DNA of 32,000 nucleotides from Alkanindiges illinoisensis DSM 15370. Lineage in GTDB: Bacteria > Pseudomonadota > Gammaproteobacteria > Pseudomonadales > Moraxellaceae. Position numbers and translations under genes: made by a program. The stretch spans positions 1,690,064 through 1,722,063 of the forward strand of contig NZ_JHUX01000003.1 in the NCBI RefSeq assembly GCF_000619845.1. Reading direction: 5' to 3'. The notes beneath the pieces are model-generated. The model saw only the letters and a program-made list of their open reading frames with translations. It was not told where the DNA came from and did not search any database. Within the stretch, counting starts at the first letter, position 1; each line of letters opens with the position of its first letter. Below, piece by piece: positions 3,656 through 24,721 of this stretch.

Positions 3656-3670
3656 TGGCATGGATTTCGC
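3656..3670 (+). promoter_or_regulatory. Candidate sigma-54 (-24/-12) promoter of the FMN reductase gene
   Basis: TGGCATGGATTTCGC compared with consensus TGGCAC-N5-TTGC. The GG and GC dinucleotides have the correct spacing, with one mismatch in each element. It ends about 40 nt before ATG 3711. A sigma-54 activator is encoded at 7152-8279. Confidence 0.6.
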
Positions 3671-3710: not shown

Positions 3711-4442
3711 ATGAGTCATTATCAGCAGCCTCGTCCACTAAAGGTCGTCGCCGTATCCGGTGGTTTAAATACGCCCTCCAAAACCGAAAGCCTGCTTGAT
3801 GCCATTCTCAACGAATTACAAAATGCCCTTGCTATTAATGTGCACTATATTAAGCTCAGTGAAATTGGCACGGGCCTGGGTGGTGTGATTAGCCGTAATG
3901 ATTTGCCAGCCAGTGTGCAGCAGGCCTTATCTGCCATTGAAACTGCTGATGTCCTGATCGTAGGTACACCGGTATACCGGGCATCCTTTACGGGCTTGTT
4001 TAAGCATCTGTTTGATTTTGTCGACCAGTTTGCTTTGGTGGATGTGCCTGTGCTACTCGCAGCTTCGGGCGGTAGTGACCGGCATGCGCTCGTGCTTGAA
4101 CATCAACTGCGTCCCCTGTTTAGCTTCTTTCAGGCACAAACCCTGCCTATTGGGGTGTATGCCACCGATCAGGATTTTACCAATTATCAGGTTAGCAGCA
4201 GTGTCTTGCTGGAACGCATTAAACTGGCTGCCACTCGTGCCCTGCCAGTATTTCAGTATGCCGCTACCCTGCCTGCACGCCAGACTAATGGGCAACATAA
4301 ACAGGGTACAGTTAAATTAAACCAGCCCATTGCCCAACCTGCTGTCCTGCCATCTGCACAGGCTTCCGGTATTGCAGGCGCAGGACAGGAATTGCCTGTC
4401 GAACAGCGTAACCCAGCCACATTTAAAGTGGTGAATGGATGA
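3711..4442 (+). CDS. NAD(P)H-dependent FMN reductase (SsuE/MsuE/SfnE-like) with a low-complexity C-terminal tail
   Basis: Motifs: KVVAVSGGLNTPSKT, ADVLIVGTPVYRASFTGLFKHLFD, LAASGGSDRHALVLEHQLRPLF. Start set at ATG 3711 (GGAG 7 nt upstream). The track's TTG start at 3633 adds a non-homologous leader. About 50 extra Q/A/P-rich residues follow the flavodoxin-like core. Confidence 0.85.
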   Translation: MSHYQQPRPLKVVAVSGGLNTPSKTESLLDAILNELQNALAINVHYIKLSEIGTGLGGVISRNDLPASVQQALSAIETADVLIVGTPVYRASFTGLFKHLFDFVDQFALVDVPVLLAASGGSDRHALVLEHQLRPLFSFFQAQTLPIGVYATDQDFTNYQVSSSVLLERIKLAATRALPVFQYAATLPARQTNGQHKQGTVKLNQPIAQPAVLPSAQASGIAGAGQELPVEQRNPATFKVVNG

Positions 4443-4738: not shown

Positions 4739-4954
4739 ATGACTATTTCTGCAATTAATGTACGCAATCAGTTTAAGGGAATTATTAAGGAAATTATTGA
4801 AGGCCCTGTGGTGTCGGAAGTGGACGTGGAAGCAGCACCGGGCCTGTTTACCTCGGTTATCACCACGCGCTCTGTAAAAGACCTGAACCTGCAAGTGGGC
4901 AGTGAAGTGATTGTGCTGATCAAATCCACTGAAGTTTCGCTGGCAAAGCTTTAG
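4739..4954 (+). CDS. ssuF: Small TOBE/Mop (molbindin-like) domain protein, SsuF-like
   Basis: 71 aa, MTISAINVRNQFKGIIKEI..GPV.SEVDV......TSVITTRSVKDL.L..GSEV..LIKSTEVS.AK. This is a single TOBE domain. Pseudomonas ssu operons end with such a protein (SsuF). The start (4739 or 4724) is uncertain because no clear SD is present. Confidence 0.7.
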   Translation: MTISAINVRNQFKGIIKEIIEGPVVSEVDVEAAPGLFTSVITTRSVKDLNLQVGSEVIVLIKSTEVSLAKL

Positions 4955-5008: not shown

Positions 5009-5839
5009 ATGACCCAGCAATCAACCGGTGCTGTTTTAATACAGCATGTCAATAAAACCTATAGCCGTGCCGGTGAAGCACCATTACCCGTGCTGGAATA
5101 TATTTCACTGGATATTAAACCGGGCGAATTTATCGGCATTGTTGGCAGTAGCGGCTGCGGGAAATCCACCCTGCTGCGCCTGCTGGCAGGGCTGGAACCG
5201 TCGTTTGAAGGGAACATCAAGATTGATGGCCAGCCGATCCAGGGCACCAGTCTTGAGCGCGGCATTGTGTTTCAGGATCACCGTTTATTTCCGTGGTTAA
5301 CGGTGCGCGACAATATCCGCATTGCCTTGCAAAACAGCAAATTATCCCGTAGTGAACAGGATAAAACCATTGATGAGCATTTGGAACTGGTCGGTCTGAC
5401 TGCTTTTCAGAATGCCTATCCATCGCAGTTGTCAGGCGGTATGAGTCAGCGCGTGGCAATTGCCCGCAGTCTGGTTAACCGTCCCAATATCCTGTTGCTG
5501 GATGAACCATTTGGCGCACTGGATGCCTTGACCCGAAGTAACTTGCAACAGGAATTGCAACGCATCTGGCACACTGAAAAAATCACCATGATTATTGTCA
5601 CCCATGACGTTGAAGAAGCGGTTTTTCTGGGTAACCGTGTGGTGGTGATGCAGCCCAATCCCGGCAAAATCAAGCGAATTGTGTCGGTTGATTTACCGCA
5701 TCCCAGACAGCGGGATAGTGTCCGGCTGACAGCCATTAAACATGATATTTTAAGGGATTTTAGCCAGTTTTCCCTAGACCAGCTTAATGAGCTTTCCTTA
5801 ACCAGACAGCGCTTTGAGGAGTTTCAGTTTTCATGGTAA
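5009..5839 (+). CDS. ABC transporter ATP-binding protein, nitrate/sulfonate/taurine (SsuB/TauB) type
   Basis: Walker A GSSGCGKST, Q-loop VFQD, signature LSGGMSQR, Walker B LLLDEPFGALD, H-loop VTHD. No permease or binding-protein gene lies on the same strand next to it. Confidence 0.9.
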   Translation: MTQQSTGAVLIQHVNKTYSRAGEAPLPVLEYISLDIKPGEFIGIVGSSGCGKSTLLRLLAGLEPSFEGNIKIDGQPIQGTSLERGIVFQDHRLFPWLTVRDNIRIALQNSKLSRSEQDKTIDEHLELVGLTAFQNAYPSQLSGGMSQRVAIARSLVNRPNILLLDEPFGALDALTRSNLQQELQRIWHTEKITMIIVTHDVEEAVFLGNRVVVMQPNPGKIKRIVSVDLPHPRQRDSVRLTAIKHDILRDFSQFSLDQLNELSLTRQRFEEFQFSW

Positions 5840-6112: not shown

Positions 6113-7045
6113 ATGTCAGCTTTAACCCAACTTTCCAGCTCCATTGCTCAGGCCCCGCGCTGGTATGAGCACAGCATTCAAACCCTGGATACCGTGCGTA
6201 TTACGCCAATTCAAGGTGCTTTAGGGGCAATTGTTACTGGAATTAACGCCAGTTTGCCGCAAAGTGCTGAAGTGATTCTGGCGCTTAAACAGGCTTTGCA
6301 TGAACACCTGATTCTGGTGTTTAAACAGCAACAATTAGAAGATGAGCAATTGCTGTCTTTTGCCAGCTATTTTGGTGCCATTTTTAAACCACCCGCTGAT
6401 ATTCCGGTACTGGCCACTCAGACCGATACCGGTTTACCGCCTGATGTCGTGCCTGTATCCAATGCAGTAGGCGCCGGGGATTATACGGGTCATGGCGAAC
6501 TGACTCCGCACAGCGACCATCACTGGACACCCCAGCCTTCCAGTGGCTCACTGCTGTATGCCATTGAATTGCCCAAAGATGGCGGTGCAACCAGTTGGTA
6601 CAACACCGTGCAGGCTTATGCAGATCTGGATGATGATGCCCGACAGGAAATCGACCAGCTTCAGTTAATTACCTATAATCCCTTCTTGCGGATCAAGTCT
6701 GGTGGGCCATTCCCCAAATACCGCTTTTCTAACCAACCTGTGCTGGGCGCCGCTTTCCCTCATCCCTTGGTGCGCACTCATTCTGAAAGTGGCAAGCGCG
6801 GGATTTATCTGGATACCCACACGGAAGTTGAAGTAGTCGGCTATGATGACCAGCGTGGCGCCGCATTGATTGAAAAATTGCGTGCGCACATTGTGCAGCC
6901 AAAGTATCGCTATGAGCATCAATGGGAAACCGGCGATATTGTGTACTGGGACAACCAAGTCACCTTGCATTCACGCACTGCATTTCCGGCTGAACAGCGC
7001 CGCTTGCTCAAACGGGTGAGTCTGGCGGGTAATCGTCCGTTTTAG
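6113..7045 (+). CDS. TauD/TfdA-family Fe(II)/2-oxoglutarate-dependent dioxygenase
   Basis: 310 aa. It has an HxD iron motif (PHSDHHW), a distal His (VTLHSRT) and the DIVYWDN motif typical of the family. SD GAGG lies 8 nt before the ATG. Confidence 0.85.
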   Translation: MSALTQLSSSIAQAPRWYEHSIQTLDTVRITPIQGALGAIVTGINASLPQSAEVILALKQALHEHLILVFKQQQLEDEQLLSFASYFGAIFKPPADIPVLATQTDTGLPPDVVPVSNAVGAGDYTGHGELTPHSDHHWTPQPSSGSLLYAIELPKDGGATSWYNTVQAYADLDDDARQEIDQLQLITYNPFLRIKSGGPFPKYRFSNQPVLGAAFPHPLVRTHSESGKRGIYLDTHTEVEVVGYDDQRGAALIEKLRAHIVQPKYRYEHQWETGDIVYWDNQVTLHSRTAFPAEQRRLLKRVSLAGNRPF

Positions 7046-7062
7046 CAAATTGAGTAACCTAT

Positions 7063-7092
7063 AAAAAAAGCTATCCAGGGATAGCTTTTTTT
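7063..7092. terminator. Bidirectional Rho-independent terminator between convergent genes
   Basis: AAAAAAAGCTAT-ccaggg-ATAGCTTTTTTT. The hairpin has an A-run on one side and a T-run on the other. It sits between the stop at 7045 (+) and the stop at 7152 (-). Confidence 0.85.
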
Positions 7093-7151
7093 ATGCTGAT
7101 GCATTTTTAATGCTGATTCATTCAGGGCGCATAAAGCGCAGCACAGCAGGA

Positions 7152-8279
7152 TTAATTGAATGCCAAATCCAGCTTGTCAGCTGCTTTGACAGACAAGCTG
7201 CGCTCTTCACCAATGAGGCCATATTTAATCAGGCGGGCACGGATAATATTACGGCTAATCCCAAGCAGTTTGGCAGTTTGCACCTGATTGCGGTGGCAGT
7301 ATTCATAGGCGACCTGAATCGTGGCTTCTTCAATCAACTGATCCAGTATTTCCCCGGAATGCACTGAAGCGGATTCAAACAGGTTTAACAGGGCCTGCTG
7401 TAAGTGTTGCTTGGGCAGCAGGTCTGTTTTGATCAAACCTGAGCGGGCCTGCTCTACATCAAGATGTGATTGCCCAGTTAAAGAGGAAAAGCAAAAATCG
7501 GCAGGTTGAATCTGATGGTTTTTGCACACCAGCAAGGCATGGTGAATGGCATTTTCCAGCTCACGGATATTGCCCGGATAAGTGTGACGCAGTAATTTTT
7601 GCTCAGCACTGGCACTAAATGAAGCCTGCGGATAGCCCAGACGCTGGCAATAATCCTGCACAAAATAGCGGGCCAGCGGCAAAATATCGCCTGGCCTGGC
7701 CGCCAGCGGTGCAATTCTCAATAAGGCCACATTCAGGCGATAGTACAGGTCTTCCCTGAACTTGCCAGCCTGCACCGATTCTTCCAGCCGGACATTGGTT
7801 GCGGCAATCACCCGGACGTTGAGTTTAATCGGTTTAAGTGAGCCAACCCGGTAAATTTCCCGTTCCTGTAGCACCCGCAGCAGTTTAACTTGCAGGGTTA
7901 AGGGCAAATCACCAATTTCATCCAGAAACAGGGTGCCATTATTGGCGGCCTCAAACCAGCCGACCTTGCTATGAATGGCCCCAGTGAAGGCACCTTTTTC
8001 ATGACCAAAGAGTTCACTTTCGGCAATCGATTCGGTAAATGCCCCACAATTCACGGCAATAAATGGCCCATTATACCGATGACTGAGCATATGAACATGC
8101 CGGGCAACCAGTTCCTTGCCGGTTCCGGTATCGCCAATAATCAGCACACTGGCTTCGCTGGGTGCAATCTGTTCTATTCTTTCCAGTAACTCGCAGGACT
8201 TCTGATCTTCATAGACCATGGCAGTGGCACGCTCTGACCGAAATAACCGGCGTGAATCAGGATGAGTTAATACTGACAT
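7152..8279 (-). CDS. Sigma-54-dependent transcriptional activator (bacterial enhancer-binding protein) lacking a receiver/sensor domain; SfnR-like
   Basis: AAA+ core with Walker A GDTGTGKE, the sigma-54 contact loop [15 protein letters not shown], Walker B LFLDEIG, and a C-terminal Fis-type HTH ([21 protein letters not shown]). Only about 30 residues precede the AAA+ domain. The SfnR analogy comes from its sulfur-gene context and is an inference. Confidence 0.9.
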
Positions 8280-8409
8280 AATGCTGTTCTATTCTCATGA
8301 AATCCAGTCAGTTATATTGCATGAATCCACTGAGCGTTAGAAATCACTAATCATTCTTAATAATCCATGAAATCAGCAAACTGGGCAGCATTACGCCATC
8401 CATCAACAA

Positions 8410-9240
8410 TTAACGCTCTGTTTTCCATGCGGTTAAGCGTCGTTCAATCAGCAATAAGCTGTAATTAAACATCAGCCCTACGACAGTAATAATGACAATG
8501 CCAAAGAACATTTCCGGAATCTGGAAATTAAATTGCGCATAATTAATGAGATAACCCAGCCCTGCTTTGGCACCAATCATTTCAGCGGCAATCAGGATCA
8601 ACACTGAAAATGCACCCGCCAGACGAATGCCTACAAAAATGGTGGGAACCGCAGCAGGCAGGATGACCTTACGGAACAGTTTTACCGGCCCAAGACCCAT
8701 GGTGCGTGCTGATTTAATCAGTAAGGGATCAACATTGCGTACCCCACTGACGGTATTCAGCAGGATCGGCCAGTTGCAGGCATAAATCACCAGTGCAATC
8801 TTGGAGGTTTCACCAATCCCCAAAAACAGAATGAAGACCGGCAATAAGGCCAGCGCGGCTGTATTTCTAAACAGCTCCAGCAAAGGACTAATCAGGTCAG
8901 AAAATGGTTTATACCAGCCAATCGCCAGCCCCAATGGAATGGCAATGATAATGGCAATTACAAAACCACTGAGTGAACGAATCAAGCTGGCTTGCAAATG
9001 TGCCAGTAATTGGCCGTTTAACGTCAGTTGCCAGCCGGTTTGCATGACCACGGAAAATGGCGGCAAAAATGCCGGGTCAACTGCGCCCACGCGTGGTAAC
9101 ACTTCCCATAAGGCCAGAAATACCACAATGGCAATGGAGCGCTTAAAGATAGTATAAAAAATACTGAAATCCACTTGCGGCGCTTTTAAGGTGGTTTTGG
9201 GTAAGATCAGCGTTTGTGTATGTTTGGTGCCAGACATCAT
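8410..9240 (-). CDS. ABC transporter permease, SsuC/TauC family (permease 3)
   Basis: 276 aa and multi-TM. It carries the binding-protein-dependent transport family EAA-like loop (IKSARTMGLGPVKLFRKVILPAAVP). SD GGGAGA lies just upstream of ATG 9240. Confidence 0.85.
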   Translation of the reverse strand: MMSGTKHTQTLILPKTTLKAPQVDFSIFYTIFKRSIAIVVFLALWEVLPRVGAVDPAFLPPFSVVMQTGWQLTLNGQLLAHLQASLIRSLSGFVIAIIIAIPLGLAIGWYKPFSDLISPLLELFRNTAALALLPVFILFLGIGETSKIALVIYACNWPILLNTVSGVRNVDPLLIKSARTMGLGPVKLFRKVILPAAVPTIFVGIRLAGAFSVLILIAAEMIGAKAGLGYLINYAQFNFQIPEMFFGIVIITVVGLMFNYSLLLIERRLTAWKTER

Positions 9241-9273
9241 TATTCTCCCGAATGCTTTAAATCATCTGCGTAA

Positions 9274-10122
9274 TCACGCAACCCGCTGTTTGGTTTTTTC
9301 CTGTTGCTGCGCCTTGAGCACTTCTTCACGCAGCAACGTCCAGACCTGATGTCTTAACTGGCCAAACTCGGCGCGCGAACGCACATCCTCATGCTTGCTA
9401 CGTAAAGACGCAGGCACGTCAATAACCTGTTTAATGCGACCCGGCCGTGAGGTCATGATGGCAATGCGCTGCCCCAGATAAATGGCTTCATCAATGCTAT
9501 GGGTAATAAAAATAATGGTCTTGCCGGTTTGCTGCCAGATTCTCAATAGCTCTGCCTGCAGGGTTTCGCGGGTTTGGGCATCCAGCGCGGCAAACGGTTC
9601 ATCCATCAGCAGCACTTCAGGGTCATAAGCCAGACTGCGGGCAATGGCAACGCGCTGTTTCATGCCACCGGACAGTTCTGCCGGATAATGATGTTCAAAA
9701 TCAGACAGGCCCACCAGTTGCAGGAAATGCCGGGCAGTTTTGCGGCGCTCGGTCTTGTCCACCCCTTTGGCTTCAAGGCCAAATTCAATATTTTCCAACG
9801 TGGTTAGCCACGGAAACAAGGCATATTGCTGAAACACAATGCCCCGGTCCAGCGCAGGCCCAGTGATGGGTTTATCGTCAATGGTCATTTGTCCGCTGGT
9901 GGGCGTGGTGAGGCCGGCCAGCAAATCCAGCAAGGTGGATTTACCACAACCACTAGGGCCAACAATGGCCAGAAATTCACCTGTTTTCACATCCAGTGAT
10001 ACGTTATCAACCGCCACAAAATCATCAGCCTGTTGTTTTTTACCTTTGATTTTTTTGGCAGGAAAGGTTTTATGCACATTGATGATCCGTAATTTATTGA
10101 CCGGGTTTATTTGAGTGCTCAT
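9274..10122 (-). CDS. ABC transporter ATP-binding protein, SsuB/TauB type
   Basis: Walker A GPSGCGKST, signature LSGGMKQR, Walker B LLMDEPFAALD, H-loop ITHS. Start set at ATG 10122 (MSTQINPV...), 1 nt after the stop of the upstream gene. The track's start at 10200 would overlap that gene by 77 nt. Confidence 0.9.
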   Translation of the reverse strand: MSTQINPVNKLRIINVHKTFPAKKIKGKKQQADDFVAVDNVSLDVKTGEFLAIVGPSGCGKSTLLDLLAGLTTPTSGQMTIDDKPITGPALDRGIVFQQYALFPWLTTLENIEFGLEAKGVDKTERRKTARHFLQLVGLSDFEHHYPAELSGGMKQRVAIARSLAYDPEVLLMDEPFAALDAQTRETLQAELLRIWQQTGKTIIFITHSIDEAIYLGQRIAIMTSRPGRIKQVIDVPASLRSKHEDVRSRAEFGQLRHQVWTLLREEVLKAQQQEKTKQRVA

Positions 10123-10123
10123 G

Positions 10124-11164
10124 TTATTTCTCACTGGCTGTAGGGCTTGCTTGAGTGGCATACGGATTAAACTGGTTGGTAAACAGACTATTGGCCTCAA
10201 TTTGATTGGGCTTTAGCAGGCCCTGTTTTACAAACAAATCAATCCAGCGCTGAAATTGGGCTGTAGTGAGCAGCCCACCTTTATCCACCACGCCAAAGCT
10301 GTGCCAGTACTGCACAAACTGGTCATTTTCCTGCCGCTTGCGTTTATGAATAATGGCTTTAAAACGGGCAATAACCTGTTCGCGTGGCGTGCTTTTGCTC
10401 CACTCCACGGCTTTGGCCACACCTGTGACAAACTGCTTCACGGTGTCGGGATGATCCTTGATAAACTGCTGGGTAAACACATAGCTACCCGCCGTAAAGC
10501 TGCCGTATAAATCGGTATCGGAAAACACCTTGCGAATGCCGCCACGTGCCAGTGCCTTATCCTGAAACACGGAAACCAGCGACGCAGCATCCACCTGTCC
10601 TGCCCGCAAAGATTGCTCGGTACTGGCAGGCGGGAGCACGGTCAGTTCAACCTTATTAATGTCTTCAGGCGATAAGCCCTGCTGGGCCAGATAGTCCTTC
10701 AAGACAAATTCATAATGAGCGCCCAGTGTATTGACCGCGACTTTTTTACCAATCAAATCACGGGCAGTATGAATGGGACTATCATCCTTGACGTAATAAC
10801 CCACCCAGCTTTTGTCGTCACTGCCGTAGGAACCCACCACGGATTTAATTTTGACATTGGCAGCAGCCAGCTTAATGATGGCGCCATTAAATGCAGTGGC
10901 CACATCGACATCACCCGTCGCCAGTGCCTGTAGATCCTGTGGGCCGCCCTGTACACTACCCACATAATTGAGCTTCAATGGCCCTAAATAGCCCAGATCC
11001 TCAGCCAGTTCAGGCAAGCTGACCGTGCCAGGCAGGCTTTGGTAGCGTAACTCGGTGACAGGTTGCCCTACACGTGCAGACTGATCTTCTGAATGCTTGC
11101 TGCAGGCAGTCAATAGGCTAGATAGAGCAAGGGCCAATACCGCAATTCGTTTATTTAATATCAT
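10124..11164 (-). CDS. Lipoprotein substrate-binding protein, aliphatic sulfonate (SsuA/NMT1-like) family
   Basis: Start at ATG 11164 (MILNKRIAVLALALSSLLTAC) gives a signal peptide with lipobox LTAC, and GGAGAA lies upstream. The body resembles NMT1/SsuA-type periplasmic binding proteins. No internal Met, and the only Cys is the lipobox Cys. Confidence 0.8.
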   Translation of the reverse strand: MILNKRIAVLALALSSLLTACSKHSEDQSARVGQPVTELRYQSLPGTVSLPELAEDLGYLGPLKLNYVGSVQGGPQDLQALATGDVDVATAFNGAIIKLAAANVKIKSVVGSYGSDDKSWVGYYVKDDSPIHTARDLIGKKVAVNTLGAHYEFVLKDYLAQQGLSPEDINKVELTVLPPASTEQSLRAGQVDAASLVSVFQDKALARGGIRKVFSDTDLYGSFTAGSYVFTQQFIKDHPDTVKQFVTGVAKAVEWSKSTPREQVIARFKAIIHKRKRQENDQFVQYWHSFGVVDKGGLLTTAQFQRWIDLFVKQGLLKPNQIEANSLFTNQFNPYATQASPTASEK

Positions 11165-11174
11165 TGATTTTCTC

Positions 11175-11951
11175 CTAACCCTGCTGACGCCAAACCAGCC
11201 AGCGACGTTCCAGATATACAGCCACACTGTTTAAGCCCACACCAATAATGCCAATGGTGAGCAGGCCAAATACAATCAGTCCCACATCCTGCGCAGCGCG
11301 GCCATTGATCACAATATTGCCAAGACCTACGCCATAGCTGGCCAGCAAAAATTCCGAGCCAATGGTGGCCAGCCACGCAAAGATCAATCCAAGCTGTAGA
11401 CCCACAAAAATCTGCGGTGCTGCGGCAGGTAGAATCAGTTTGCGCAGTAATTGCCAGGGGCTAAACTGATACACCCGTGCTACTTCATATTGCTGTAACG
11501 GAATGGCATTAACCCCTGCCAGCGTATGCAGCGCCACCGGGTAAAATACTGACAGTGTGATAAACAAGACCTTGGCACTATTGCCATAGTCCAGAAACGT
11601 GGAAATTAAGGGCAGCCAGGCAAACAGGGACACCTGACGCAATACATTAAAACTGGGCGCCAACAGATAGCTGGCCCAGCGCGATACGCCAATTAAAATG
11701 CCAAAAGCAATTCCCAGAAAACTGCCAACGGCAAAGCCACTTAAGTCACGCAGCAGGCTAGCTCCAACACCCTGCCAGAACGCTGCCGTAAATAACTGCT
11801 GCCAGCCCACATGCAAGACCGCACTTGGCGCAGGAATAAGTTTTGGGTTAAGCCAGTGCTGCCAGGACGCCAGCGCCCATAACAGAATAAACAGAACCGG
11901 AATAACCCAGCCACGCCAGTTAAAGGAAGGTGATGATTTAGTATGTGCCAT
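11175..11951 (-). CDS. ABC transporter permease, SsuC/TauC family (permease 2)
   Basis: Multi-TM with an EAA-like loop (YEVARVYQFSPWQLLRKLILPAAAP). Start set at ATG 11951 (MAHTKSS...), 10 nt after the stop of the upstream permease. The track's start at 12002 would overlap that gene. Confidence 0.85.
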   Translation of the reverse strand: MAHTKSSPSFNWRGWVIPVLFILLWALASWQHWLNPKLIPAPSAVLHVGWQQLFTAAFWQGVGASLLRDLSGFAVGSFLGIAFGILIGVSRWASYLLAPSFNVLRQVSLFAWLPLISTFLDYGNSAKVLFITLSVFYPVALHTLAGVNAIPLQQYEVARVYQFSPWQLLRKLILPAAAPQIFVGLQLGLIFAWLATIGSEFLLASYGVGLGNIVINGRAAQDVGLIVFGLLTIGIIGVGLNSVAVYLERRWLVWRQQG

Positions 11952-11961
11952 GATCTGCCCC

Positions 11962-12807
11962 TTAAAATGCCTTGCGTTGCCAGCGATTAAAGCGTTGCTC
12001 AATCAGGCGCAACATGTTGTCCAGCAAAAAGCCAATGATGCCAATCACGATAATTGCCATATAAACAATATCGGGCTGAATCAGTTGCCGCCCCCAGACG
12101 ATCAGGTAGCCAATGCCTTCACTACTGGCCAGCAACTCCACAAATACCAGTGCCAACCACGCTTGCATCACGCCCTGACGCAAGCCACCCACAATGCTGG
12201 GTAATGCCGCAGGAATAATCACTTTTTGCAGGGTTTGCCACTGGTTGAATTCGTAGACTCTGGCCACTTCCAGCAATTTTGCAGAAACATTCAGCACACT
12301 TTTATAGGTGGCGACCATTACGGGTACGACCACAGCCAGTGAAATCGCCACAATTTTCAAGCTTTCACCAATACCCAGGAAAATCAGCAACAAGGGAATC
12401 CAGCCAATCACCGGGAACTGGGCAATCAGGTTAAAGGTTGGATAAAGATACAAGTAAGCTCGACGCGATAAGCCAATCGCAAAGCCCAGAATCAAGCCGA
12501 CTGAGCCGCCAGCCAAGACACTCCAGCCAATCCGTTTTAAACTGATCAGCAGGTTATCTGGTAACTCGCCAGACTGGCTGAGTTCAATAAAGGTTTGCCA
12601 GACCAGTTTTGGGCTAGGCAAAATCTGTTCAGGTAGCCACTGCTGGTGATAGACCGTAGTCCACAAGGCCAATACCAACAGCGGAACCAGCAAACCCAGC
12701 AACATAAGATTCAGGCGTATGCCTAAACGCTTGGCGTGGTAAACCAGACGGGATGACCATTGCCAGTCCTGTCCTGCTGTTTTTTCTTCATACTCAAGAA
12801 CGCTCAT
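11962..12807 (-). CDS. ABC transporter permease, SsuC/TauC family (permease 1)
   Basis: Multi-TM with an EAA-like loop (LEVARVYEFNQWQTLQKVIIPAALP). I prefer ATG 12807 (MSVLEYEE...), which has GAGTGA upstream. The alternative is GTG 12819, which overlaps the MFS stop. Confidence 0.85.
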   Translation of the reverse strand: MSVLEYEEKTAGQDWQWSSRLVYHAKRLGIRLNLMLLGLLVPLLVLALWTTVYHQQWLPEQILPSPKLVWQTFIELSQSGELPDNLLISLKRIGWSVLAGGSVGLILGFAIGLSRRAYLYLYPTFNLIAQFPVIGWIPLLLIFLGIGESLKIVAISLAVVVPVMVATYKSVLNVSAKLLEVARVYEFNQWQTLQKVIIPAALPSIVGGLRQGVMQAWLALVFVELLASSEGIGYLIVWGRQLIQPDIVYMAIIVIGIIGFLLDNMLRLIEQRFNRWQRKAF

Positions 12808-12815
12808 GGTAAAGA

Positions 12816-14066
12816 TCACTCATACGAATTGGTTAAAATATCGATTCTGGGTTCTTTGGCCGGAACCACAGCGCGGACAAACGGATGTTTGAACTGCACT
12901 AGCACCACCAAAGCCACAAATACTGCACATAAAGGGAAAAAGATTGCCTGCAAACCCCACAGGTGCGCCAGCCAGCCACCAATCAAACTACCGAGCATGC
13001 TGCCGGACGGCCCACAGGTCAGCGATACGGCGGATACATTGGCCATGCCCAGATGCTGGCCGATGCGGGCAAATACCGACAGGTTAATGACATTGAGTGT
13101 GCCTAAACCAACACCCAGTAGTGGCGAACCCAGCCATAACCAGAAGGCAGACAGTGGTAAAGCCAGACAAAGCAAGGCTATTGCCACCAGCCCAAAACCC
13201 AGCTGGTAAGCGCGTTTTTCACCCAGTGCCTGCACCACCACGCCCATCCCAAACAGCGCTGCCATGTATACCCCGCCATATAGCGTCACCAGACTGGCAG
13301 CAACTGCCGGGCTAAAGCCATAATTGCGGATGGCAATCACCACAATAAAAAAGGTGAAATAGCCCATCACGGCACTGTCCAGCAGTTCAAACAAGCTGGT
13401 AAAACGCAAGGTAATGTCGCGCTTGAACAGCGAGAGTTGCTGGCCAATGAGCTGAAAACTCAGCTTGGGTGCCTGTTTACCTGCAACTTCATAACCTGAA
13501 AAAATCAGTGGCGACAAGAACACCGGCACCGTAAATAGCAGTGCAATCACTGCAAACACGCCACTAGGTACTAAATGGTTACTCAGCCATACCGCAAGCA
13601 GTGGCCCAAGCAGCATAAAACCAATCATGTGCGTGCCACGAAACCAGCCTGCCTTGACTGTGCCCAGCCGGTTTAGCTGACTCATGAATACGGTGTTGAG
13701 TGAAATAAACCGCAGCGGCATGCAAAAGCTCACCAGCACAATACAGCCCAGCAGAAACCACACCTGCCCCACCGCTGGAATCAGGCCATACCATAGCCCG
13801 GCCAGCAGGCTACCCAGGGCAAACAGCAGCAACGGGCCAAAACGGTTAATCAGGATTCCGGTAGGAATTCCCATGAGTAAAATGCCAATGCTTTGCGCAG
13901 CAGCAATCAGGCCCAGTTGTACTTCGGAAGCATGCAAATGCACCGCATACAACGACACTGCAATCTGGGCGGTGCCGACGCCAAGCCCAGCGGTTGAAGC
14001 CACCAGCATAAAGGCCAGCAAGAACCGGTTTTTCTCCACTTTATTTAATAACCAGTGCTTTGCCAT
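12816..14066 (-). CDS. Major facilitator superfamily transporter
   Basis: 416 aa and very hydrophobic, with about 12 predicted helices in a 6+6 arrangement around a central loop (KQAPKLSFQLIGQQLSLFKRD). It is embedded between a binding-protein gene and ABC permease genes. Confidence 0.8.
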   Translation of the reverse strand: MAKHWLLNKVEKNRFLLAFMLVASTAGLGVGTAQIAVSLYAVHLHASEVQLGLIAAAQSIGILLMGIPTGILINRFGPLLLFALGSLLAGLWYGLIPAVGQVWFLLGCIVLVSFCMPLRFISLNTVFMSQLNRLGTVKAGWFRGTHMIGFMLLGPLLAVWLSNHLVPSGVFAVIALLFTVPVFLSPLIFSGYEVAGKQAPKLSFQLIGQQLSLFKRDITLRFTSLFELLDSAVMGYFTFFIVVIAIRNYGFSPAVAASLVTLYGGVYMAALFGMGVVVQALGEKRAYQLGFGLVAIALLCLALPLSAFWLWLGSPLLGVGLGTLNVINLSVFARIGQHLGMANVSAVSLTCGPSGSMLGSLIGGWLAHLWGLQAIFFPLCAVFVALVVLVQFKHPFVRAVVPAKEPRIDILTNSYE

Positions 14067-14130
14067 ACATTGTTATCCACAATAACCATCAACATACCCA
14101 TCAACTTTTACCCAGCCAGAACCCTAAAGC

Positions 14131-14157
14131 GCATCTGGTGTACCAGCCACCAGATGC
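14131..14157 (-). other. Perfect 10-bp stem-loop within the operon, between the binding-protein gene and the MFS gene
   Basis: GCATCTGGTG-taccagc-CACCAGATGC. No T-run follows on either strand, so it is not a canonical terminator. A role as a partial terminator or mRNA-stability element is possible. Confidence 0.45.
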
Positions 14158-14172
14158 TCACAACTCATTGAT

Positions 14173-15261
14173 TTACTTGCCTGTACCTGTGCCTGCCACC
14201 TTGTTGCCATTCACATCAAAACGCGGCCAGAAATTTTCCAGATGCAGCTCTTTTAAGGCAGTATTGAGGTATTTCGGTTCAATCCAGTTGTCGACAGTGA
14301 CAGGACGACGGATCAATTTAAAATCAATGGATTGCTGTACAGATTTTTTAAGTGAATTAATCGCATAATCATCCCAGTAAGGACTATTGCGGTCTTTAAG
14401 GTCAGCATCAGCCCAGTCTTTTTTATAGTCCAGATAAGGCGTACCACTTTGTGCCCACAGTTTGTACTGCGCATCACGGTTAGCTTCGCGTGAACTCCAC
14501 TCATCCTGCTTGATCAGGGTGGTTACCACACGCTGCACGACACCTGGATATTTTTTCTCAAAATCCTCGGTTACCCAGAAACTCAAAGGCCCGTTTAAAT
14601 TTGGGTCTTTGCGTATTTCAATAATGCGCTTGGCCACGCCGCGTGATTCCAGTGTCCATGGGCTGGTAATGGTGCCGTCAATATCCCCGGTGGCCAGTGA
14701 AGTCTGGGCAGAATAGGTATCCTGGCTAATGATGCGAAAATCTTTTTCCGTAAAGCCGTACTTGCGCAGCAAGCGTCCCAGAATTAACTGGGCATTGGTT
14801 CCCTTGAATACAGAAATGGTTTTGCCTTTTAAATCCGTCAGACTTTTTGCGGATGAATCTGCGGGAACCGTAAAATAAACCGGGCCAAAACGTCCTGCCA
14901 CAAACAGCAATTTGGTTTTCAGTCCAGTGGAGCGCCCTACAATGGCAGGCAAGTCACCATGCCCTGCACCAAAATCCACTTTGCCATTGGCTAATGCTTC
15001 ATTTAAGGCAGGCCCTGCACCGGGAAAGAAGATCCACTTGACCTTAATGCCATCTTTTTTAAATTCTTCCTCAAGCACACCACGCAAGTGCGCACTGGCC
15101 ACAAAGGAATAACCCACTTTTGGCTTGCCACCCACACCAGCACCCGGCACACCCAGCCGGATTTCAACCGGCTTACCCACATCAGCCAGCGCAGGCAAGC
15201 CTGCACTTAAAAATAATCCAGCGGTTGCAGCAATTAAAAAACGTCGTGTTATTTGTTTCAT
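14173..15261 (-). CDS. Periplasmic substrate-binding protein, SsuA/AtsR/NMT1-like, with an RR-containing signal peptide
   Basis: The leader MKQITRRFLIAATAGLFLSAGLPALA/DV is twin-arginine-like, with an AxA cleavage site. The body is of the sulfonate/sulfate-ester binding protein type. SD GAGAG lies 8 nt upstream. No internal Met or Cys in 362 aa. Confidence 0.8.
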   Translation of the reverse strand: MKQITRRFLIAATAGLFLSAGLPALADVGKPVEIRLGVPGAGVGGKPKVGYSFVASAHLRGVLEEEFKKDGIKVKWIFFPGAGPALNEALANGKVDFGAGHGDLPAIVGRSTGLKTKLLFVAGRFGPVYFTVPADSSAKSLTDLKGKTISVFKGTNAQLILGRLLRKYGFTEKDFRIISQDTYSAQTSLATGDIDGTITSPWTLESRGVAKRIIEIRKDPNLNGPLSFWVTEDFEKKYPGVVQRVVTTLIKQDEWSSREANRDAQYKLWAQSGTPYLDYKKDWADADLKDRNSPYWDDYAINSLKKSVQQSIDFKLIRRPVTVDNWIEPKYLNTALKELHLENFWPRFDVNGNKVAGTGTGK

Positions 15262-15282
15262 GTTTAAACTCTCACAGTGAAA

Positions 15283-16770
15283 TTAAAAGGTGTACTGGAA
15301 CTGGGCCTGTGCTTCGTTAAAGTCTTTTTGCACCGGGGTTTCATGGGCATAATCCCAGTGATTTAAGCCCACCTGAAACTTGGTGGTTTCGGCAAAGAAG
15401 AAATTCAGTCCGAGTGTCTGAATGGTGACTTTGCCTTGCCCTTGCCCGGCAATGCCGGTCACATCAGCACTTTTATTCGGGTTATAAGTGTCAAAGCGAT
15501 AAAAGGTTTGAATGGAATTTGGCCATGAATCATCAAACTTGGCGGCGGATTTGATACTGTTATAAAACTGGTCACCCAGGGTATAAAACAGGGTGGCGGT
15601 ATGCCCTTCCGCTTTGACTTCACTGGCATTGCCGCTGGCAGTGGCATAATCCGAACGGCCCTGCACATATTCGTAAGTCACACCAAATGGCGCATGGTTG
15701 TAATACACATCAAAGCCCAGCCGGTCATTGCGGCCATTACCATCCAGAACTGTGGTTCCGTTGACCACATTCTTGCTACCCTTGATATAGGACGTACCAA
15801 ATTTCAGCTCACGGAAAATGCTGGCGTAGTCCACAGGCAGGGTGAATGCAAGGCGGCCAATGTAATCCTTGTGGTTATTGTCATCCAGCTTGTTGGTGCC
15901 ATTGCCATTGATCACCCCCAGCGCATACTCAAGTAACGGTGCGCGATAGTTGGAGCCATAATCCACAAAGGGCTTAACATCACCGCGTAAAATCAGCCCG
16001 CTCTGGCGATTAAACAATCCCAGTTGAGCCAGACCTGTAGCCACATTAATGGTGGGCCGTAAATCTTCGGGCGATTGAGGGTCCAACCCAAACGGAATAA
16101 GCTGCTGGCCAAAGGTGACATTGAGTTTGGGAATCTCCAGCCCGCCATTGGTTGAGGTGAAGTGGTAGCGCACAAATGCATCAGCCAGATTCAGATCACT
16201 GGCACTGCCCGTTGCAGTCGTACGCTTGCCATAGCTAAATGACAATTGATACTCCAGATTCTTGCCTTCCTTATAATCACGGTATAAGTTGCCACGTACC
16301 CCAATCAGGGCAGTTGGAATATCAAAGGTATTACGGCGGGCGCTATTGGGTGCCGGATTGCCTGCTGTCGTGGATTCATCCTGTCCCTGTGCACGCACCT
16401 GAACCGTGCCATACAGCGTGGTATCCCGGGTTGATTTCACCGTTTTGCGCTCATACTGGCGACCATCATCGTATTTATAATTTTCCAGATCAGTCCTGAA
16501 TCCAGCCAGATCACTTTGGGTTGCAGTCTGAATTGAAGTATCTTCCTCGCCATTTTCGTCAGTGGCTGAAGTCACCGATGTGTCAGAAGCAGTTGTATTG
16601 TCGGTTGCTTTTTGCTGCTTGAGCGCATCAACCTGTTGCTGCAATGCCACCAGTTGAGCCTGCAATTGCGCCAGATTTTCTTCCAGACTGGTATCGGCCC
16701 AGACGGTGGTACTTGGCACAACTCCCGCCAGTACAATGGCAATGGAACCTGCCAAAATAGTGTGCTTCAC
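15283..16770 (-). CDS. Outer-membrane porin, OprO/OprP (Porin_O_P)-like, with an N-terminal coiled coil
   Basis: GTG start with AGGGG 7 nt upstream. Signal peptide ...STTVWA/D, then a heptad-like segment LEENLAQLQAQLVALQQQVDALKQQ and an acidic/Thr-rich linker. Alternating beta-strand patterns follow, ending in QFQYTF with a C-terminal Phe, which is the outer-membrane beta-barrel signature. No internal Met or Cys in 495 aa. Confidence 0.7.
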   Translation of the reverse strand: MKHTILAGSIAIVLAGVVPSTTVWADTSLEENLAQLQAQLVALQQQVDALKQQKATDNTTASDTSVTSATDENGEEDTSIQTATQSDLAGFRTDLENYKYDDGRQYERKTVKSTRDTTLYGTVQVRAQGQDESTTAGNPAPNSARRNTFDIPTALIGVRGNLYRDYKEGKNLEYQLSFSYGKRTTATGSASDLNLADAFVRYHFTSTNGGLEIPKLNVTFGQQLIPFGLDPQSPEDLRPTINVATGLAQLGLFNRQSGLILRGDVKPFVDYGSNYRAPLLEYALGVINGNGTNKLDDNNHKDYIGRLAFTLPVDYASIFRELKFGTSYIKGSKNVVNGTTVLDGNGRNDRLGFDVYYNHAPFGVTYEYVQGRSDYATASGNASEVKAEGHTATLFYTLGDQFYNSIKSAAKFDDSWPNSIQTFYRFDTYNPNKSADVTGIAGQGQGKVTIQTLGLNFFFAETTKFQVGLNHWDYAHETPVQKDFNEAQAQFQYTF

Positions 16771-16841
16771 GTTAAAACCCCTAAATTAAATAACGATCTC
16801 TGGTTTGATTTAAAACCAAACTGTTTTGTCCCTTTTCTTAT

Positions 16842-16858
16842 TTCAACAAGTGTGCCAA
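16842..16858 (-). promoter_or_regulatory. Candidate sigma-54 promoter of the porin/transport operon
   Basis: Minus strand reads TTGGCACACTTGTTGAA, i.e. TGGCAC-N5-TTGA. The -24 element is perfect and the -12 element has one mismatch (TTGA for TTGC). It lies about 75 nt upstream of GTG 16770. Confidence 0.6.
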
Positions 16859-17050
16859 TAAATAAGTTTTTGTTTTTATTGAATTATTTTAAAATTTATT
16901 GATGAGGTGCGTGTTTTACAACGCCCAATGTGCTGAGAAATCAGCATGGTGCTTATTCACATTCATCTTTAAAATGGCAATCAAAATGCGTTTTTTAGAT
17001 AAAGGGGATAAAAAGTTAAATTCTTTTATTAAAATCAAACCTAAAAAAAT

Positions 17051-17080
17051 AAAAATGGCCGGGTGGTCCAAGCCATTTTT
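17051..17080 (-). terminator. Probable Rho-independent terminator after the Crp-family gene
   Basis: AAAAATGGC-cgggtggtccaa-GCCATTTTT. On the minus strand the hairpin is followed by TTTTTATTTTTTT. The loop is rather large. Confidence 0.55.
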
Positions 17081-17236
17081 TTTACTTTCGATGAGATGAA
17101 ATTTTTGAAACCAGGAAATATTAAATTTCTTTTGATCAGTTGAAAACGCTACATTAAGTTGATTAGATATTTCTCGATTTATTATCAATAGATTTGATGA
17201 ATAAAATATCTTAACTTAATCTATTCTTCCCTTACA

Positions 17237-17959
17237 TTAATCCAGCCTTGATAACTGCCGTATTCGATTTAAATCAATAATACGCACCTGACTATAATTC
17301 CACTCAATAATTCCTTCGGCAAAAAACCATTGCAGGCTTTTATGCAGGGTTTGTCTGGAAATATTAAATTGCTCGGCAAAATCCTGCTGGCGGATTTTTA
17401 AATGAATCAGGCCGGGATGGTTTTTTACCTCACCATACTGGCTATATAAGCGGTTTAAATAATAGGCAATCTTCTGGGTTAAACTGGCAGTCTGGATATA
17501 GCGGCTTTGTTCAAATAATCCATACATACGTTGGCTCATTAACTGCAACACCTGCCAGAGGGCCAGGGGCTGCTGCCTGAGTTGCTGGATATATACTGAT
17601 CCGGGCAATATGGCAATTTCAACCTGCCCCATGCTAAAAAAATCATAATTGACAGCCTGATGCTGTAATACCGCCACCAGATTAAACACAGAATGCTGGG
17701 TCATATAATCACTGATCTTGAGCTGGCCATCCTGTTGCAACCAGCCCACTTGCAAGGTGCCTTTTAACAGCACATAAATGTCTTCGACCACTTGCTGATG
17801 TGCTAACAGCAATTGTCCCGAATTAAATTTTTTAACAATAGCTTGATCACACAGCGCCTGCTGAGCGTCCTGACTGAATGCGCTAAACGCCGCATCCTGC
17901 TGTAAAATTGCACTCAGCCGTTGCCGTGCGTTAGGCTCACTATCCTGATGAAACATCAT
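17237..17959 (-). CDS. Crp/Fnr-family transcriptional regulator
   Basis: 240 aa. An N-terminal cNMP-binding-like beta-roll is followed by a C-terminal HTH (RQDFAEQFNISRQTLHKSLQWFFAEGII). No Fnr-type N-terminal Cys cluster. Confidence 0.8.
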   Translation of the reverse strand: MMFHQDSEPNARQRLSAILQQDAAFSAFSQDAQQALCDQAIVKKFNSGQLLLAHQQVVEDIYVLLKGTLQVGWLQQDGQLKISDYMTQHSVFNLVAVLQHQAVNYDFFSMGQVEIAILPGSVYIQQLRQQPLALWQVLQLMSQRMYGLFEQSRYIQTASLTQKIAYYLNRLYSQYGEVKNHPGLIHLKIRQQDFAEQFNISRQTLHKSLQWFFAEGIIEWNYSQVRIIDLNRIRQLSRLD

Positions 17960-18071: not shown

Positions 18072-19088
18072 TCAGGATGCCTTTTCATAAATCCGTCCTT
18101 CCTCTGAACGTAAATTGGAAATATCCTGATTTTTGACATTCTTGATCACCTGACTTGGACGGCCATCTACCCCAACCGGGATATCTCCCTCAATCGTTAC
18201 CCGGGAAGCCACCCGCAGCGCATCGCCATAATCATTGATGGCACGATGCTGGGTAGCACGATTATCCCAAATCGCCACATCACCTACGGCCCAGCGCCAG
18301 CGCACAATGTTTTCCCACTGGGTAATATGATTCTGGAATTCCTCAAATAAATAGCGCGAATCCGTGCTATTTAGTCCACTAAAACGCTTAAAAAAATGGC
18401 CAAGTACCAGTGTTTTTTCACCTGTTTCAGGATGCACACGCACCAGCGGATGTTCGGTTTCAATTTCTACCGCAGTCCTGAACAGTTTGCGGTTTTCTAC
18501 CGTATTTTCAGCATGATGCGGTACACCATGATCGGCATAATCATAGGCATTGGTATGCACTGCCCTTAAGCTATCCGCCAGCGTCTTTAACACTGGGGGT
18601 AAGCCTGCATAAGCTGAAGTGGTGTTTGCCCAGACTGTATCACCGCCCACATCCGGGGTTACCACATTTCTTAAAATCGAGGCTTTAGGATAATTGGGCA
18701 AAAACGTAATATCGGTATGCCATGAATCAGCACGGCCACCGCGTGAATCAATCGACAAGGTATGCGCTGTGCCATCTTTAATCGGGACACTCGGATGATT
18801 TAACGGATTGCCCAGTAAACTGGCAAATGCTTCCTGCTCCAAATCGGTTAAATGTTGCTGGCCCCGAAAGAAAATGACTTTATGTTTTAATAAGGCATGC
18901 TGAATTTCTGATACCACATCACTGCTTAAATCACCTGCCAGTTTTACACCAGAAATTTCGGCACCGATTCGTACGGTAACGGGATTTACCTGAATATGCT
19001 GGTACTGATATTCGGGATTATAGGCATGATCTGCATGGCTAGGTATATGGGTGTGGACATCGGTATTGGCGATTGCTAGCTGGCTCAT
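18072..19088 (-). CDS. TauD-family Fe(II)/2-oxoglutarate dioxygenase (taurine dioxygenase / AtsK alkylsulfatase-like)
   Basis: Canonical TauD motifs SWHTDITF (HxD), [20 protein letters not shown] and a distal His/Arg region. It also has a His-rich N-terminal extension of about 30 aa ([23 protein letters not shown]). No internal Met or Cys in 338 aa. Confidence 0.85.
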
Positions 19089-20524: not shown

Positions 20525-21154
20525 TCATCTATTCGTTAAATAAAAATTTTCCTTCGGCCACAAAACGATCAATTGATCGTCGTGGCGTCGGTTGTTGTCG
20601 GTTAGTTGTGCTCTAGCCTGCAAGCCTTGCGGCAAATGATCTTTACTGCCTTGCTGACCAATCACAATAATCGCTTCCAGTTGATAGTCTTCAGGAATAT
20701 GCAAACGCTGGCGTACCTGTGCCTGATCATAACCACCAATTGCATGGGTATGCCAGCCTTTCAAGGATGCCTGCAAGGCCAGATGCGCCCATGCTGCGCC
20801 TGTATCAAAGGAATGACTGGTTAAATTCACTGCATCCTGCTGATTTGGCGGCAAAAATGTCTTTTTTGACAAGACCAGTACCAGCGCTGAAACCTGTGCT
20901 GCCCATGACTGATTATATTCAGACAGGGTTCCAAATAATGTATTCCAGTGTGGCGTATTGGTAAGCGCATAAACAAAACGCCACGGCTGTGAATTCTATG
21001 CCGACGGCGCCCAGCGTGCAGCCTCAAAAAACTGTTTTAAGGTTACATGGTCAATTTCTGTCTGTTTAAAACCACGGGGTGACCAACGCTGTACAAACAG
21101 TGCGTCCACCTCATGCGCTGGTTGGCGCTGCTCTGCCTCAAATAAAACGGACAT
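20525..21154 (-). pseudogene. Nitroreductase-family flavoprotein gene interrupted by a single in-frame TAG at codon 53
   Basis: ATG 21154 (GGAG 8 nt upstream, 15 nt after the monooxygenase stop) opens MSVLFEAEQ...FVQRWSPRGF...FFEAARWAPSA. A TAG follows at 20996-20998, and the same frame continues NSQPWRFVYAL...SHSFDTGAAWAHLALQASLKGW.THAIGGYD... to the stop at 20525. The stop falls inside the conserved APSxxNxQPW motif. The track shows only the distal 115-aa piece. Confidence 0.8.
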
Positions 21155-22519: not shown

Positions 22520-22584
22520 ACTATTTAGCTCCATAGCTCAAAGAACGCATGCTTAAAAAGCACTGAGGTTGCCTATGGATATAT

Positions 22585-24696: not shown

Positions 24697-24721
24697 AGTT
24701 TTTTCTCTCAAATCGGTTGAA

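Follow-up and report, generated by a model that had tools for sequence, protein, structure and literature searches.

The window analysed here, a stretch of 32,000 nucleotides from Alkanindiges illinoisensis DSM 15370 (contig NZ_JHUX01000003.1, positions 1,690,064 to 1,722,063 of the forward strand), harbors on its minus strand, between about 17080 and 7060, a compact array of transport genes closed by a gene for a sigma-54 activator. According to the data reported below, this array is probably a sulfur-starvation uptake operon of about 9.7 kb under the control of an SfnR-type activator and sigma-54, its response to sulfur limitation being what we infer. An earlier note, made from the sequence of the same window, had listed ten minus-strand elements in a given order; domain and family searches, together with the choice of the start codons, recovered all of them in that order. 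They include substrate-binding proteins (SBP), a transporter of the major facilitator superfamily (MFS) and the permeases (perm) and ATPase of ATP-binding cassette (ABC) systems:

15283-16770, minus strand: porin, of the DUF3138 group according to source names, with a signal peptide, an N-terminal helical segment and a beta-barrel
14173-15261, minus strand: SBP1, a periplasmic binding protein of the NMT1/SsuA family (PF09084) with a twin-arginine translocation (Tat) signal
14131-14157, minus strand: hairpin between cistrons, with a 10-bp stem and no U-tract
12816-14066, minus strand: MFS transporter (PF07690)
11962-12819, minus strand: perm1, SsuC/TauC-like ABC permease, starting at GTG 12819 or ATG 12807
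11175-11951, minus strand: perm2, SsuC/TauC-like ABC permease, 34.5% identical to perm1
10124-11164, minus strand: SBP2, an NMT1/SsuA-family binding protein that is a lipoprotein (LLTAC lipobox)
9274-10122, minus strand: in-operon ABC ATPase, whose top NCBIfam match is TauB, under the cut-off
8410-9240, minus strand: perm3, ABC permease, 29-31% identical to perm1 and perm2
7152-8279, minus strand: SfnR-family sigma-54 activator (gene sfnR), with an AAA+ domain containing GAFTGA, a putative C-terminal helix-turn-helix and no sensory domain

SBP1 starts 21 nt past the end of the porin gene, and gaps of 106 and 130 nt precede the MFS and the activator genes, respectively. The tight spacing that had been described past the MFS start holds with the best start codons, the genes down to perm3 either overlapping by 4 nt or being separated by 1-33 nt.

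The activator (375 aa) matches PF00158 (E = 9e-70) from residue 22 onwards and possesses the 'EKGAFTGA' and Walker A motifs; no other N-terminal domain was found in it with Pfam or NCBIfam, and its HTH_8 score (20.1 bits) is just below the 22-bit gathering score. The presence of a receiver-less sigma-54 activator at the distal end was therefore correctly recognised. The protein is 60–61% identical, over 94–95% of its length and in alignments starting from residue 1, to Pseudomonas proteins of 350–362 aa; among these, P0182 (60% over 95%) bears SfnR as its source name, a name only, and P0230 (61%) is a widespread P. aeruginosa protein. On the basis of this full-length similarity to Pseudomonas SfnR, of the shared N-terminus and of the GAFTGA motif, we assigned the activator to the SfnR family. 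According to titles cited in two papers (PMC8234197, PMC13352529), SfnR is a receiver-less, CysB-regulated sigma-54 activator of the dimethylsulfone and methanesulfonate utilisation genes. As a member of this family, the activator is no orphan and follows a regulatory logic known in outline. The positive feedback that its distal position had suggested could arise by read-through in this organism and is not a conserved trait, as sfnR lies on the opposite strand in 24 of the fetched loci.

Promoter, upstream palindrome and limits of the transcript

The regulatory elements of the operon, and the two further promoters of the same kind in the window, are the following:

17043-17080, minus strand: intrinsic terminator past the upstream Crp-family gene, with a stem and a U-run (-13.7 kcal/mol, z = -2.25)
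16931-16946, no strand: perfect palindrome TGCTGA-N4-TCAGCA, starting 89 nt upstream of the -24 TGG, a candidate upstream activating site for SfnR
16842-16857, minus strand: sigma-54-type promoter of the porin operon, TGGCACACTTGTTGAA (TGGCAC-acttg-TTGAa)
7063-7086, no strand: bidirectional intrinsic terminator separating sfnR from the TauD-like gene that converges on it (-15.9 kcal/mol, z = -4.75, a stability reached by 0 of 200 shuffles)
3557-3670, plus strand: msuE promoter set, with a palindrome (3557-3572) and the promoter TGGCATggattTCGC (TGGCATGGATTTCGC; 3656-3670) ahead of msuE (3711-4442)
22586-22698, minus strand: monooxygenase promoter set, with two palindromes (22647-22665 and 22683-22698) and the promoter TGGCATggaaaTTGT (TGGCATGGAAATTGT; 22600-22586) ahead of the gene (22534-21170)

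The porin promoter has the GG at -24, the correct 10-nt spacing and, at -12, GA (TTGA) in place of GC. We evaluated it on a comparative set of 80 loci harboring porin relatives, from species-representative genomes, 68 of which were usable for a promoter scan; a sigma-54 motif was sought up to 450 nt upstream of the porin gene, and up to two mismatches were allowed in the palindrome. The motif was retrieved in 39 of the 68 related loci (versus 6.8% of the control windows), and 34 of these 39 also possess the palindrome, whose background frequency is 0.056 per 190 nt. The palindromes cluster at -80/-81 and from -88 to -92, that is, about one helical turn apart, and the copy at 16931-16946 is the sole exact match to TGCTGA-N4-TCAGCA in the window. 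Its distance from the promoter falls in the range of about 80-150 nt expected for an upstream activator site. The orthologous loci have TGGCAY-N5-TTGC/TTGA at the corresponding place, and one of them (L032) shares both the TTGA variant and the geometry. The matches to 'GG-N10-TTGAA' in the closest loci from metagenome-assembled genomes (L006, L015, and L016) lie within the upstream coding region and were discarded as chance occurrences.

The msuE promoter has both the GG at -24 and the GC at -12. The monooxygenase promoter is kept in 20 of 34 related loci, a palindrome accompanying it in 17, and its -12 element may also read TTGT or TTGA; the conservation of TTGT/TTGA at -12 across orthologous promoters suggests that this is a trait of the regulon and not a defect. 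The palindrome, the degree of conservation and the two further sets in the window render the porin promoter credible, and the comparative data speak for the sigma-54 promoter of the earlier note being real. We propose that the three combinations of promoter and palindrome define a local SfnR-type regulon, with the palindrome as the putative SfnR-binding site.

A separate observation comes from locus L083, where, at 9707-10001, an sfnR-like gene of P. putida is transcribed away from an operon whose products are an NMT1 SBP, a LIP-family protein, a monooxygenase, an SBP_bac_5 protein, a TonB-dependent receptor and another monooxygenase. This operon possesses a TGGCAT-N5-TCGC promoter and, about 125 nt upstream of it, a TGCTGC-N4-GCAGCA palindrome, which adds one hint that the palindrome may be the binding site of SfnR-family proteins.

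The leader between promoter and porin is 71 nt long in the window and has no arrangement of Cys/Met peptides. In the Acinetobacter orthologues (L002–L012, L014, L019, L022, L025, L027, L029, L034, L035, L037, L039, L043, and L045) it spans 190–380 nt, at about positions 9600–10000 of the loci, and harbors small Cys/Met-rich peptides, such as MKMLRCCMES, MIVILRCCMKT, ...AQLCCCMMTPAMMRA, ...VMCMTMCGYTCCHQ, and ...PMCCDAMSL; in L002, L008, L014, and L019 a hairpin and a T-run lie past the peptide. These leaders look like leader-peptide attenuation sensing the Cys/Met supply. No Rfam match was found for the one Acinetobacter leader scanned (L002).

As for the limits of the transcript, the terminator at 17043-17080 insulates the operon from upstream transcription, the terminator at 7063-7086 lies past sfnR, and a search of the minus strand across 6900-17300 revealed no sigma-70-like site. 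Together with the conserved promoter and upstream site, these features agree with the single enhancer-dependent transcription unit for sulfur-related uptake that had been proposed. No known RNA was retrieved from the window by an Rfam scan, and no tRNA gene was found in it.

Within the unit, the hairpin past SBP1 (14157-14131) has a perfect 10-bp stem, GCATCTGGTG-N7-CACCAGATGC (-18.7 kcal/mol, z = -3.86, a stability reached by 0 of 200 shuffles), and lacks a U-tract; the signal is confined to this local structure, since folding of the whole SBP1-MFS spacer gave none (z = -0.94). Many related loci also have a strong hairpin directly past the SBP1 stop codon, with sequences unrelated to one another, and this recurrence in position suggests a conserved role. 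The element is likely to be either mRNA-stabilising or a partial stop, raising porin and SBP1 over the membrane subunits.

The strength and the conserved position of this hairpin, as well as the 106-nt and 130-nt gaps ahead of the MFS and sfnR genes, would also fit several transcripts: the hairpin would end the porin-SBP1 mRNA, the genes from MFS to perm3 and sfnR would be expressed from promoters of their own (e.g., CysB-dependent ones), and sigma-54 would serve the first two genes only. Work by Endoh et al. of 2003 is said to have found sfnR expression CysB-dependent in Pseudomonas putida DS1, which would favor such a scenario. We regard it as unlikely, however, in that the hairpin has no U-tract and clear terminators occur only outside the unit, no sigma-70-like minus-strand site was found in the region, and the genes from MFS to perm3 overlap or are 1–33 nt apart.

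A single operon driven by sigma-54 and SfnR has, in turn, to be weighed against some adverse data. The -12 element of the porin promoter is TTGA, whereas the canonical one is TTGC. The bare sigma-54 pattern is not enriched in the window (46 matches versus 36 expected), so that the significance of the promoter rests on its conservation. Among the loci compared, the presence of an activator gene in the 10-kb flanks is not significantly associated with that of the promoter motif (Fisher p = 0.105), and 17 activator-bearing loci have no motif within 450 nt. Lastly, the 130-nt gap ahead of sfnR has room for a separate promoter.

ABC components, porin and MFS transporter

SBP1 has a TRRFLI twin-arginine signal; it scores 122.7 bits with TIGR01728 (cut-off 163.5), and its best match in the PDB is 3uif, SsuA (E = 9.6e-45). 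The best matches of both the SBPs are SsuA-family proteins, and no BLASTP match between SBP1 and SBP2 was obtained at E ≤ 1e-3. The permeases are 29–35% identical to one another. A second ABC ATPase gene (5009-5839, plus strand; ATPase_dn) lies 1.3 kb past sfnR, and its product is 50.7% identical to the in-operon ATPase; directly upstream of it, a gene at 4739-4954 (plus strand) codes for a small, stand-alone TOBE/Mop protein resembling SsuF. In the window, these two genes run opposite to the operon.

The distribution of these genes was analyzed in the 67 loci with enough downstream sequence. In each of these 67, perm1 lies next to perm2. The simple loci show the order porin-SBP1-(MFS)-perm1-perm2-ATPase_dn, the segment perm1-perm2-ATPase_dn ('12D') occurring in 25 loci, and the ATPase gene directly past perm2 is the orthologue of 5009-5839, not of the in-operon ATPase gene. 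The ATPase-perm3 block is found as a unit in 41 of the 67 loci, usually with SBP2 ahead of it. ATPase_dn is visible at the cluster end in 25 of these 41 loci; the remaining 16 end at the flank limit, and in 12 of them the TOBE gene is visible at the end. In all the related loci of sufficient length, an ATPase_dn orthologue is the last gene of the cluster, with the TOBE gene directly upstream of it in 29 loci; in nine simple loci the TOBE gene lies just upstream of the porin gene.

The simplest reading of these data is that the operon embeds the genes of two importers: importer A would consist of SBP1, perm1/perm2 and ATPase_dn, and importer B of SBP2, the in-operon ATPase and perm3, a pairing that synteny suggests. 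In this case, perm1 and perm2 presumably form a heterodimer, and perm3 a homodimer that acts together with SBP2 and the ATPase encoded next to it. One may speculate that the detached TOBE protein is an oxyanion-sensing regulatory domain for ATPase_dn.

The earlier note's single three-permease ABC system with one ATPase is not in agreement with this picture, since perm1 and perm2 are always paired and, in the simple loci, directly followed by ATPase_dn, and SBP2-ATPase-perm3 represents an added module in tauABC order. The search for the gene order in other genomes, which the note had called for, revealed that it is common: the three-permease core is present in 41 of the 67 comparable loci, 40 of which also harbor the MFS gene.

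Two further data of the adverse kind concern these components. No SBP, permease or ATPase attains any NCBIfam equivalog cut-off (SsuA_fam 122.7 and 105.4 versus 163.5; SsuC 152.5 versus 347; TauB 248.9 versus 357), so that the substrates are left unassigned from the families; at the family level, the proteins are NMT1/SsuA-type SBPs, BPD_transp_1 permeases, and ABC_tran ATPases. Moreover, in some relatives four permeases are accompanied by just one ATPase (classes such as Oa1212D and OaM12aa12D), which makes the sharing of an ATPase possible. Since the operon proper likewise has three permeases and one ATPase, the three permeases and two SBPs might share that ATPase in one ABC importer, which together with the porin and the MFS protein would form a multi-route system. 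The second, 50.7% identical ATPase 1.3 kb past sfnR, the position of its orthologues at the cluster ends and directly past perm1-perm2 in the simple loci, and the gain or loss of SBP2-ATPase-perm3 as a block in tauABC order make this arrangement very doubtful.

Relatives with two perm1-perm2 pairs, i.e., four permeases, and one to four SBPs were found in betaproteobacteria and Pseudomonas (L048, L050–L052, L054–L057, L060, L061, and L063); they usually have one ATPase at the cluster end, and two in three loci, which implies that an ATPase is shared between translocators.

The porin has a signal peptide and, in its model, a helix at residues 27-57 (LEENLAQLQAQLVALQQQVDALKQQ). No match to it was found in Pfam (E ≤ 0.001), including Porin_O_P (PF07396), or in NCBIfam; a precomputed PF07396 match exists for some of its homologues only, and its relatives bear the source names DUF3138, 'OprO/OprP family', and 'carbohydrate porin'. 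The AlphaFold model, obtained from 15 sequences and of moderate quality, consists of long N-terminal helices followed by a beta-barrel; with this model, whose predicted local distance difference test (pLDDT) is 63.6, Foldseek gave a probability of 1.00 to many 16-stranded trimeric porins, with template modelling (TM) scores of 0.43–0.68, and ranked OprO third and sixth (TM 0.48 and 0.55) among the porin matches. The protein hence has the character of a porin, and the designation 'OprO/P-like' is appropriate at the fold level only, membership in OprO/P not being demonstrated. The only paper found to name DUF3138 guessed at an ABC-coupling factor, which the porin fold contradicts; since the DUF3138 gene of that paper adjoins an ABC operon of the polyamine type, members of the family seem to be general partners of ABC importers.

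Probing with the MFS protein did not retrieve any NCBIfam model, and the PDB sequence search was without match; the sequence is 100% identical to that of an Alkanindiges illinoisensis protein. Its clade is small, with 106 relatives found, nearly all annotated generically as 'MFS transporter', and it is present in 47 of the 67 loci. The transporter belongs to a clade tied to the porin-ABC operon, as judged from this distribution of sequences. On the metagenomic contig L082, organized as porin-SBP-MFS::perm-perm-perm-perm, an open reading frame (ORF) of 696 aa (P0339; 2557-4647) fuses the MFS protein to perm1. The junction keeps an internal Shine–Dalgarno sequence and ATG, which makes it weak evidence for a physical coupling of MFS protein and permease; the fusion may be due either to a lost stop codon or to an assembly error.

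Neighbouring genes and proposed uptake route

The sulfur-related genes around the operon, in addition to the TOBE and ATPase_dn genes, are:

18072-19088, minus strand: AtsK-like alkylsulfatase gene (354 bits to AtsK; also a close relative of Rv3406), two genes upstream of the porin gene
17237-17959, minus strand: Crp/Fnr-family regulator gene, upstream of the porin gene
6113-7045, convergent with sfnR: TauD-family gene
3711-4442, plus strand: msuE, an MsuE equivalog (241.9 bits versus a cut-off of 212.5)
21170-22534, minus strand: gene for a monooxygenase dependent on reduced flavin mononucleotide (FMNH2), NtaA/DmoA/YtnJ/DszA-like (87 bits versus the SfnG cut-off of 383)

A Tas-like aldo-keto reductase gene is also among the neighbours, and no sfnG or msuD equivalog was found in the window. 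Sulfate esters or sulfonates are suggested by the AtsK-like, TauD-like, MsuE and aldo-keto reductase neighbours; for the substrates, our best guess is alkyl sulfate esters and/or sulfonates. Across genera, the sulfur-scavenging neighbour enzymes are conserved together with the porin cluster. Furthermore, Paraburkholderia phymatum harbors a DszA-like gene with a two-permease ABC set, annotated 'sulfate ester', which is RpoN-dependent (PMC5979394), and this dependence fits a sigma-54 control of this type of module.

The genes for the Crp-family and AtsK-like proteins lie upstream of the porin cluster in 10 fetched Acinetobacter loci, seven of which have no sigma-54 activator gene in the flanks. 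The Crp/Fnr-family protein may be an alternative regulator of the porin-ABC module. In the Acinetobacter loci L070, L072, L073, and L078–L081 the pair precedes a simple porin-ABC cluster with neither a sigma-54 promoter ahead of the porin gene nor a gene for a sigma-54 activator in the flanks.

The following route can be depicted for the operon. Having no sensory domain, SfnR would presumably be active in proportion to the amount made. It would bind TGCTGA-N4-TCAGCA about 90 nt upstream of the promoters of the porin operon, msuE and the monooxygenase gene, and drive open-complex formation at these three sigma-54 promoters. The porin promoter would yield a single transcript of about 9.7 kb ending at the terminator past sfnR, and the hairpin past SBP1 would protect, or partly end, the porin-SBP1 segment, so that these two proteins would outnumber the membrane subunits. 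Organosulfur anions would cross the outer membrane through the porin, a channel resembling the trimeric porins. Importer A would comprise the Tat-exported SBP1 and a perm1/perm2 heterodimer powered by the ATPase encoded at 5009-5839, and importer B the lipoprotein SBP2 and a homodimer of perm3 with the in-operon ATPase; the MFS protein could be either a secondary uptake route or an exporter of the desulfurised carbon skeleton. In the cytoplasm, sulfate or sulfite would be released by the AtsK-like and TauD-like dioxygenases and by the FMNH2-dependent monooxygenase with MsuE, and the aldo-keto reductase would reduce the aldehyde by-products.

A more ambitious proposal, to which we attach little probability, is that the DUF3138 porin, the MFS protein and a heterodimeric ABC importer make up one envelope-spanning route for organosulfate/organosulfonate anions, in which the MFS protein would be physically associated with the ABC permease; this route would be one output of an SfnR regulon not defined before, with TGYTGA-N4-TCARCA sites, to which Acinetobacter would add Cys/Met leader-peptide attenuation.

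Import of a non-sulfur anion (nitrate, cyanate or bicarbonate; the NitT branch) under nitrogen-type control, as might be expected from the classical link of sigma-54 to nitrogen control and from the similar sub-threshold scores of the permeases and ATPases with the nitrate ABC models TIGR01183 and TIGR01184, is extremely improbable, given that the activator resembles SfnR rather than NtrC and lacks a receiver domain, that the best SBP matches are SsuA-family proteins, and that all the neighbour enzymes (AtsK-like, TauD-like, MsuE, DszA/YtnJ-like and SsuF-like) are sulfur-scavenging and co-conserved across genera.

As for the remaining features of the window, an ORF of 115 aa (20525-20872, minus strand), located between the monooxygenase and aldo-keto reductase genes, covers the C-terminal third of the nitroreductase family only (23.3 versus a gathering score of 23.5 bits) and may be a gene remnant. 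A trimeric autotransporter adhesin of 2401 aa, with a YadA head, stalk and anchor, an ESPR signal and internal repeats, is encoded at 24763-31968 (minus strand), and a BamE gene (24304-24711) lies downstream of it.

Comparison with known systems

To our knowledge, the passage of sulfonates and sulfate esters across both membranes is largely unknown in Gram-negative bacteria other than E. coli and Pseudomonas. The operon family is common in Moraxellaceae and occurs in several betaproteobacterial genera, and sulfur in aerobic soil is mostly organic (PMC3596284). The operon offers a candidate channel by which organosulfur anions may pass the outer membrane, what looks like a clear example of two ABC importers joined in one operon, and a concrete candidate DNA site for SfnR-family activators. 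It would extend the SfnR regulon from enzymes to transport, refining known biology without adding a new category, and should interest specialists in bacterial sulfur metabolism and sigma-54 regulation.

Literature searches on DUF3138, on SfnR, sigma-54 and sulfonates, on Acinetobacter porins and sulfur starvation, and on RpoN, porins and ABC systems retrieved no characterisation of this system, and the paper on dimethyl sulfide assimilation in A. baylyi (PMC13352529) does not deal with the transport cluster. The system was accordingly rightly called undescribed as far as experiments are concerned, whereas its gene order is common (41 of 67 loci). The parts and the regulator family are known, and so are sulfate-starvation clusters with a dedicated outer-membrane protein; no paper was found that describes the porin with two merged ABC importers and an MFS protein, its placement under SfnR and sigma-54 with sfnR as the last gene, and the conserved palindrome.

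With OprO and OprP of Pseudomonas aeruginosa the porin would share, judging from its model, the 16-stranded fold at an identity of 16–17%; unlike them, it has an added N-terminal helical extension and is linked to sulfur rather than phosphate genes.

The Pseudomonas atsACBR-sftR-atsK-sftP cluster includes a TonB-dependent receptor, SftP (PMC3596284), and the statement that the known systems have no dedicated outer-membrane channel was consequently too strong. In both that cluster and the operon, an AtsK-like gene has as neighbours the genes of an ABC importer of the SsuA family and of a dedicated protein of the outer membrane; this protein is a diffusion porin (DUF3138) here and a TonB-dependent receptor there, and the regulators would be SfnR/sigma-54 with a Crp-family protein in the former case and the LysR-type SftR in the latter. 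The link with the AtsRBC sulfate-ester importer consists of the adjacency to the AtsK-like gene only.

TauABC and SsuABC of E. coli and Pseudomonas share the SBP, permease and ATPase families with the operon, and SBP2-ATPase-perm3 follows the tauABC order. The ssuEADCBF operon of Pseudomonas also codes for SsuF, a Mop-like member (PMC3596284), to which the TOBE protein encoded at 4739-4954 corresponds. Differently from TauABC and SsuABC, a second, two-permease importer would be joined in the operon, a porin and an MFS protein would be co-transcribed, the scores are under the equivalog cut-offs, and control would be by sigma-54/SfnR and not directly by CysB/Cbl.

Lastly, the SfnR regulon of Pseudomonas putida DS1 and P. 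aeruginosa (sfnECR, sfnFG, sfnA, and msuEDC) shares with the locus the receiver-less activator (about 60% identical), the sulfate-starvation context and msuE under a sigma-54 promoter. Compared with that regulon, the target operon here embeds a porin, two ABC importers and an MFS protein, a palindromic site is the putative target of the activator, and sfnR, differently from sfnECR, is the last gene of a transport operon.

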